Positions 19,061 to 19,689 of a stretch of DNA of 64,000 nucleotides are shown in pieces. The DNA is from Octopus vulgaris. Taxonomy: Eukaryota. Location: contig OX597823.1 in the NCBI GenBank assembly GCA_951406725.2, positions 7,192,001 to 7,256,000 on the forward strand, in the 5' to 3' direction. The position numbers and the translations under genes are program-made. Each line of letters starts with the position of its first letter. Position 1 is the stretch's first letter. Under the pieces are notes generated by a model that saw only the letters and a list, made by a program, of their open reading frames with translations, had not been told where the DNA came from and made no database searches.

Positions 19061-19312
19061 ATATATATATATATACATTAATATGTGTATGTGTGTCTAT
19101 ATGTATATATATATATATATATATATACATATATATACATATAAATATATATATATATATATAAATATATATATATATATATATATATATATATATATAT
19201 ATATATATATATATATATATATATATATGTATATATAATATATATATATATATATATATATATATTTATATATATATATATATATATATATATATATGAT
19301 GAAGGGAAATAT

Positions 19313-19358
19313 ATCCCGATGAAGGGATATAATAAATATCCTGGAAACAGCTGTAAGA
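19313..19358 (+). ncRNA. Minimal type I hammerhead ribozyme-like motif (Penelope-type)
   Basis: CCGATGA - A GGGATAT/ATATCCT G stem II - GAAAC AGCT GTA (palindromic helix III); same family as 54440-54489. Confidence 0.6.
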
Positions 19359-19689
19359 CCTTCTGTCTTTTTTTTTTTTTTAAATCTACACACCCTTGGT
19401 TTTTTTTTTATCTCATTACGAAAAAAAATGTCTATATACACACACTGACACATGACTAACGTTGAAGCCCTTATTCGCATAATCACTGAACCTGGAACTT
19501 AACTGCGGTTCATCTATAGCACTTATTCAGCATTACCTGACACCTTTGGGTCTTAATGACACCATTAGCTCTCATAACCTCCTTTATAACCTTTCTGTTT
19601 GACTATTTCCCCTGCTCCCTTCAACCCCATCCTCACAACTACATTCTGTTCTCGTTAAACCTTTATATTTGTAAACACTGCTCTGAAAT

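Follow-up and report, generated by a model that had tools for sequence, protein, structure and literature searches.

The question raised by this locus is what kind of element carries two short hammerhead-like motifs that lie beside (TA)n arrays in a 64,000-nt stretch of the Octopus vulgaris genome (the window, analysed here at its full length), and whether an RNA with their CCGAUGA core is likely to cleave. Re-reading of the window placed both motifs at the positions first reported, copy A on the plus strand and copy B on the minus strand. In copy A (19316..19359), which lacks a 5' strand of helix I, the 5' core CCGATGA (19316-19322) is followed by an extra A (19323), the arms of a 7-bp helix II (19324-19330 with 19336-19342), a purine, G (19343), and then GAAAC (19344-19348), AGCT (19349-19352) and GTA (19353-19355), with the cut predicted after 19355. 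In copy B (54439..54490), which has a 3-bp helix I and a 9-bp helix II, the 5' core occupies 54486-54480, the extra A 54479, GAAAC 54454-54450 and GTA 54445-54443, the predicted cut falling after 54443. Both motifs contain the palindrome ACAGCUGU.

Copy A is preceded by a (TA)n array (19060..19297; 119.5 units by TRF) and by a 20-nt 5'-junction duplication on the plus strand (19298..19317; TRF period 20 at 19290-19331, and the folds) that comprises the core end and a short helix II, and it continues into a plus-strand 3' tail (19360..19432, delimited by alignment to copy B) that ends in a short TA run. The 3' tail of copy B (54371..54438, minus strand, delimited by alignment and contig depth) reaches about 70 nt past the predicted cut, and a (TA)n array (54320..54370, by TRF) abuts its 3' end; on the other side lies an upstream body (54491..54775, minus strand) that is repeated in the family according to the depth profile and whose 5' end is at a short TA run. 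The elements are about 135 nt (copy A) and about 405 nt (copy B) long and have one common 3' end, both terminating about 70 nt past the predicted cut, at TA. Each copy thus has TA on both sides, but the long array stands on one side only, with 3-4 TA units on the other, so that their description as (TA)n-embedded holds for the flanks and not for long arrays on either side. Copies A and B lie 35 kb from each other, on opposite strands, and no second motif in tandem was found within the window.

Other repeats share this neighbourhood. The 3' TA array of copy B is adjoined by a second TA-embedded repeat (54144-54322), which is 79.7% alike over 123 nt to 6695-6813 and in which no hammerhead was seen. 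At its 5' end, copy B is joined via a short TA run to a different stretch (54780-54988) that ends at a TA array (54989-55021); it is single copy in the window and may be another TA-associated element. Related 62-67-nt tandem arrays were found by TRF at six places, apparently within a dispersed repeat (4799-4961, 14085-14441, 15076-15210, 28198-28688, 37818-38144 and 40354-40617). Another repeat has two copies, 18400-18625 and 9517-9743, 91% alike over 227 nt, with an end that we take to be Helitron-like. The open frames at 40740-41129 and 42367-42672 gave no significant match in Pfam; they resemble decayed pieces of an R4/Dong-type non-LTR retrotransposon.

The motif invites comparison with the minimal hammerheads of metazoan Penelope-like elements (PLEs), for which a consensus of CUGANGAH, G...C, GAAAN, a palindrome, NU and H has been published, together with a long helix II, a short helix I and weak, dimer-only cleavage (PMC4209133, Cervera and de la Pena 2014). 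It resembles them in the extra base after A9 (A19323 and A54479, between positions 9 and 10.1, as in CUGANGAH), in its long helix II of 7 and 9 bp, in a 4-bp helix I, in its short palindromic helix III, in its place near the 3' end and in its predicted dimer dependence. Helix I is absent from copy A, where TATC faces AGAC, and has 3 bp in copy B, a fourth being added by the majority letter at 54490 (64-90%). The segment GAA-ACAGCUGU-A fits the GAAA-N-palindrome-N-U-H pattern with a perfect 8-nt palindrome, which supports the original prediction of a hammerhead-like motif of the minimal type I whose helix III is palindromic, and the D. willistoni row in Fig. S3 of PMC4209133 also has the AGCU loop and A17 seen here.

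Unlike the PLE minimal hammerheads of PMC4209133, the octopus motif has C4, an extra purine before GAAA and mostly a G-U first pair in helix II, and no PLE ORF has been linked to it. A 5' core of CUGANGA, or of its U3-A8 covariant, was found in neither copy, both having CCGAUGA; nor was a G10.1-C11.1 pair directly before G12, the first helix II pair being G-U in both copies with the further purine before GAAA. For these two reasons we class the motif as a variant of the PLE minimal hammerheads rather than as an ordinary representative. U4 stands in all 56 rows of Fig. S3 of PMC4209133 (53 CUGA and 3 UUGA), because the descriptor used there demanded it. Within the octopus family a change at 54456 makes the first helix II pair G-C in 5-28% of the depth, and the purine before GAAA varies between G (36-93%) and, in the remainder, A, which supports the extra purine below stem II as a family-level feature. 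The unpaired bases flanking stem II had been thought unusual, a view that is overstated: the base after A9 belongs to the PLE consensus, and an A before GAAA is published, AGAAA being found in one of the 56 rows of the same figure. A mismatch where helix II begins has also been described, in an axolotl hammerhead (PMC7229834).

The two copies align at 79.5% identity over 127 nt (E 7e-24). They are identical in the 5' core (7/7) and in GAAACAGCTGTA (12/12), that is in 19/19 letters of core and helix III together, and in the 3' strand of helix I (4/4), against 5/9 loop II columns and 44/70 columns of the tail. This bears out the original prediction of two CCGATGA...GAAAC-AGCT-GTA copies with different stem II loops and with preferential conservation of core over loop positions. 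The 14-mer GAAACAGCTGTAAG occurs exactly twice in the window and, when two mismatches are allowed, gives three matches against 0.51 expected, a count reached in 0 of 100 shuffles. A relaxed hammerhead descriptor matched the window three times, at copies A and B and weakly at 50450; 100 simulated windows averaged 0.17 matches, and three of them had at least two. Chance does not explain the A/B pair.

The related idea that the likeness to a hammerhead is itself fortuitous, the motif being an ordinary hairpin at a repeat end, could draw on the lack of an Rfam hammerhead match (none at the gathering score in the whole window and none at E<=10 in 54372-54990) and on a looser pattern that matches five bacterial sequences by chance. 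However, those five matches are without the helix II layout, whereas the present motif matches the published PLE consensus at 18 of the 19 letters of core and helix III, with helices I and II and the palindrome in register, and the motif stands near the 3' end, where PLEs carry theirs; we regard a chance likeness as very improbable. The five pattern-scan matches, one in metagenome contigs and four in prokaryote genomes, were rejected as chance; the scan of viral contigs returned no match, nor did a stricter pattern in prokaryote genomes.

For a survey of the family, contigs of four of the 24 sequencing runs listed, from four organisms, were aligned to 404 nt of copy B at 80% likeness. Between 1,098 and 5,859 contigs per run matched copy B, and their summed depth, which is not equal to copy number, reached 1.6 million in a run whose single contigs have a depth of about 30-110, from which we infer a copy number of thousands or more. 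The loose 3' ends run into TA-rich sequence in 4/4 runs, with an agreement of only 0.57-0.72. Toward the 5' end the depth in run X1 drops from about 700,000 to about 2,000, and no common 5' end was found among the ends listed, the depth declining without a sharp start. A repeat family that shares its 3' end at (TA)n while its 5' ends vary reads as a set of 5'-truncated tails. Strand inversions account for six of the 15 joints listed (22 in total), each in single contigs. Evidence of tandem arrangement is confined to the 20-nt junction duplication of copy A, the contigs being too short for longer tandems. At 54505-54536, loose ends of both sides share one sequence in three runs, which suggests a subfamily with a short internal duplication directly upstream of the ribozyme.

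The distribution of variants bears on which part of the element is kept. The 39 variant places listed (from 40 of 70 rows) all avoid the 19 positions of the core and helix III (P 0.14), and they likewise avoid a wider set of 41 positions, 54432-54454 plus 54472-54489 (P 0.012, for a range chosen afterwards). The listed common variants 54464 and 54471 are pairs 8 and 9 of helix II in copy B, which are loop in copy A. In run X13, the most distant one, the depth is 431,127 at the cut region vs 4,907 upstream, a difference of 88 times, and in run X1 the two are alike (685,660 and 746,419), which indicates that conservation is strongest in the ribozyme and where the tail begins. Run X13 keeps CCGAUGA yet differs from copy B at nearly fixed places on both sides of it. 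Among the contigs and the rows listed, no two-sided compensatory change was seen in the helices, only one-sided changes that keep a pair.

A row for C4-to-U (54485) is absent among the 40 of 70 difference rows listed. The lowest top share in the 17 of these rows for which it was computed is 21.9%, which suggests that rows were listed by share and that U4 makes up about 22% or less per run; C4 would then be the majority state, at about 78% or more, a figure that follows from the behaviour of the listing and not from a direct reading and that leans toward C4, the contigs having been recruited on a C4 copy. Loose-end groups with a canonical CUGAUGA were found in runs X1 (19 contigs) and X6 (10 contigs) and one with CCGAUGA in run X13 (16 contigs), besides two further low-agreement groups with mixed letters. 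C4 is therefore not fixed in the family: U4 copies occur. Since the window is CpG-depleted (o/e 0.39) and CCG decays to CUG, these U4 copies may be decay products and need not represent a working lineage, although they could also be a canonical subfamily, and a C4 majority that persists despite CpG decay points to C4 in the source elements. Copy A offers no independent evidence on this point, because the CC of its core is the end of the 20-nt duplicated arm and may derive from the junction duplication. The claim that C4 is a family-level feature is thus supported as a probable majority state, though not as a fixed one.

U4C occurs naturally in a viroid hammerhead (Ambros and Flores 1998, cited in PMC3088659), where it is slow in vitro and supports infection. 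The core change and its natural occurrence are the same here, but in the viroid the change is rare and sits in a full hammerhead that has tertiary contacts, whereas in the high-copy octopus repeat most copies of a minimal motif likely carry it. U4C as such is thus already documented. No report of a family-level U4C in a PLE-type hammerhead was found in the literature covered (Lunse et al. 2017 and Arkhipova et al. 2017 lie outside it). The novelty of a family-level U4C is provisional, since C4 variants may already be included in either of these papers; the former reportedly presents many small PLE-associated hammerhead variants.

Predicted folding points to a motif that would act in pairs. The ACAGCUGU palindrome is predicted to form an intermolecular 8-bp duplex of -11.1 kcal/mol, through which the predicted homodimers fold, and the pairing probability of an intramolecular helix III is <=0.01; dimer cleavage of hammerheads has been reviewed (PMC6765202). 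Helix II has a pairing probability of 0.83-1.0 in copy B and of 0.0 in copy A in its context, where its 5' arm is taken up by the duplicated arm; the CCC of the duplication, which extends into the core, pairs with that 5' arm in the predicted fold. In its present form copy A is predicted to be inactive. In both copies the 9 nt behind helix I (19359-19367 on the plus strand, 54439-54431 on the minus strand) are complementary to the core GAUGAAGG, a pairing that survives the difference between A and B as well as the common variant at 54431. For copy B the calculated energies are -6.3 kcal/mol for the monomeric hammerhead, -9.5 kcal/mol for helix II alone and -10.0 kcal/mol for the core-blocking fold, and 35 of 5,000 random window 20-mers pair equally well with the core, a post hoc observation. 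The stretch behind the cut is a possible built-in off fold. U4 is among the letters that define the core, U4C is slow in vitro (PMC3088659), and in a mutational scan low activity was recorded for changes within the CUGA turn (PMC9901934). Slow cleavage is accordingly predicted for the C4 form, and the family motif would cut slowly, if at all.

The carrier element was approached through its proteins and its insertion habits. A link to a reverse transcriptase (RT)/GIY-YIG ORF was sought in the only 285 nt of upstream body present, and no match was found: the three minus-strand frames of the copy B upstream body gave no Pfam family, two word-based protein searches left 0/7 and 0/3 candidates supported, and the ESM Atlas yielded no usable match. 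The only HMMER match, to a 4,423-aa repetitive cysteine-rich protein, was rejected as compositional, and a decayed GIY-YIG end upstream of copy B, suspected from its motifs, was supported by no test run. One upstream frame has a single stop in 90 codons, which is borderline against shuffles (P 0.054). The expected link to a PLE ORF was thus not recovered. The shared 3' end, frequent 5' truncation and inversions of endonuclease-bearing PLEs are all present here, as is the microsatellite insertion bias of the Neptune and Naiad clades, with TA flanks and TA-rich 3' ends in 4/4 runs; (TA)n bias, truncation and inversions in PLEs are documented in PMC8557442 (Craig et al. 2021). The Naiads described there have an N-terminal endonuclease and no canonical hammerhead, whereas the octopus element has a near-complete hammerhead, which argues against a Naiad. 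The supplement of PMC8557442 gave no relevant match to the element motifs, though its line breaks can hide matches. The repeats of the window are cephalopod-like in appearance. Repeat annotation of Octopus vulgaris includes recently active Penelope families (PMC13282606). Judged by ribozyme type and position and by the way its copies are truncated, inverted and targeted to TA, the carrier is likely a Penelope-like retroelement. The earlier picture of a microsatellite-targeting, ribozyme-bearing retroelement is upheld in part, in being (TA)n-associated, 5'-truncated and high-copy.

Taken together, we lean toward reading both copies as 5'-truncated tails of a high-copy, TA-inserting repeat, likely a PLE, whose 3' end carries a minimal type I hammerhead; in its family form, with C4, a helix I of 4 bp, a helix II of 7 bp and a palindromic helix III, it would probably cut after GUA slowly and only as a dimer. 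We propose that reverse transcription of the source element's transcript starts at a nick in (TA)n, target-primed by the PLE enzyme as PLE biology would suggest, and that it usually stops early, leaving short tails like copies A and B. In tandem transcripts, two motifs would pair via the 8-nt ACAGCUGU palindrome and cut after GUA. U4C, the two purines that face each other below helix II and the core-complementary stretch behind the cut would weaken cleavage, and many transcripts would in consequence retain the 3' motif and tail. Both genomic copies keep the motif and tail uncut, which fits a weak or blocked 3' ribozyme.

The same element may instead carry a C4 motif that no longer cleaves, a relic in an expanded subfamily or a structure kept for dimerisation or RT binding, with U4 subfamilies as the working ones. 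The weak CUGA-turn mutants of PMC9901934, the canonical loose-end groups in runs X1 and X6, the predicted core-blocking fold and the good proliferation of PLE clades without canonical hammerheads (PMC8557442) all speak for such a loss. Yet the core and palindrome have no common variant among those listed from four organisms, run X13 retains CCGAUGA though diverged from copy B on both sides, and CpG depletion lets U4 copies arise by decay of C4; we consider this alternative doubtful, if the foremost of the competitors. It is unlikely that the repeat is a non-autonomous, retrozyme-like or SINE-like element, whose short non-coding RNA would end in a PLE-type 3' terminus and would depend on a PLE enzyme acting in trans for its mobility. 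Such an origin would agree with the lack of a protein match across 285 nt upstream and with the argument that animal retrozymes derive from PLE ends (preprint 10.64898/2026.07.22.740005), and the repeat resembles non-LTR retrozymes (PMC7229834; 10.64898/2026.07.22.740005; see also PMC6155905 for context) in being a dispersed repeat related to PLE ends with a type I hammerhead. A PLE 3' UTR of like length would also lack a protein match, however, and the depth declines gradually in the 5' direction with no common end among those listed. Moreover, retrozymes consist of short tandem units with canonical hammerheads (PMC7229834), whereas single truncated copies with a minimal motif of the PLE type are seen here, and no tandem units with a canonical type I hammerhead were found within the window.

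Beyond our preferred reading of slow, dimer-dependent tails, a bolder version can be put forward, which we hold to be speculative and rather improbable: that an entire high-copy PLE lineage has evolved a 3' ribozyme that is off in single transcripts and cleaves, paired through its palindrome, in tandem ones. U4C, the purine-purine apposition and the conserved core-complementary stretch would hold the 3' ribozyme off, and the template for reverse transcription would keep its end. If this were true, C4 families would escape CUGANGA-based searches, and counts of animal hammerheads would be underestimates.

As it stands, the C4 motif is a modest variant of a well-described one. The role of hammerheads in PLEs is unsettled between the processing of tandem transcripts and a mere passenger (PMC8557442), and a family of thousands with both C4 and U4 forms amounts to a natural experiment on it. 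If expanding lineages carry a weakened core, fast cleavage would be dispensable or harmful, and activity of the C4 form in dimers would call for a broader core consensus than the accepted one and for broader search descriptors.
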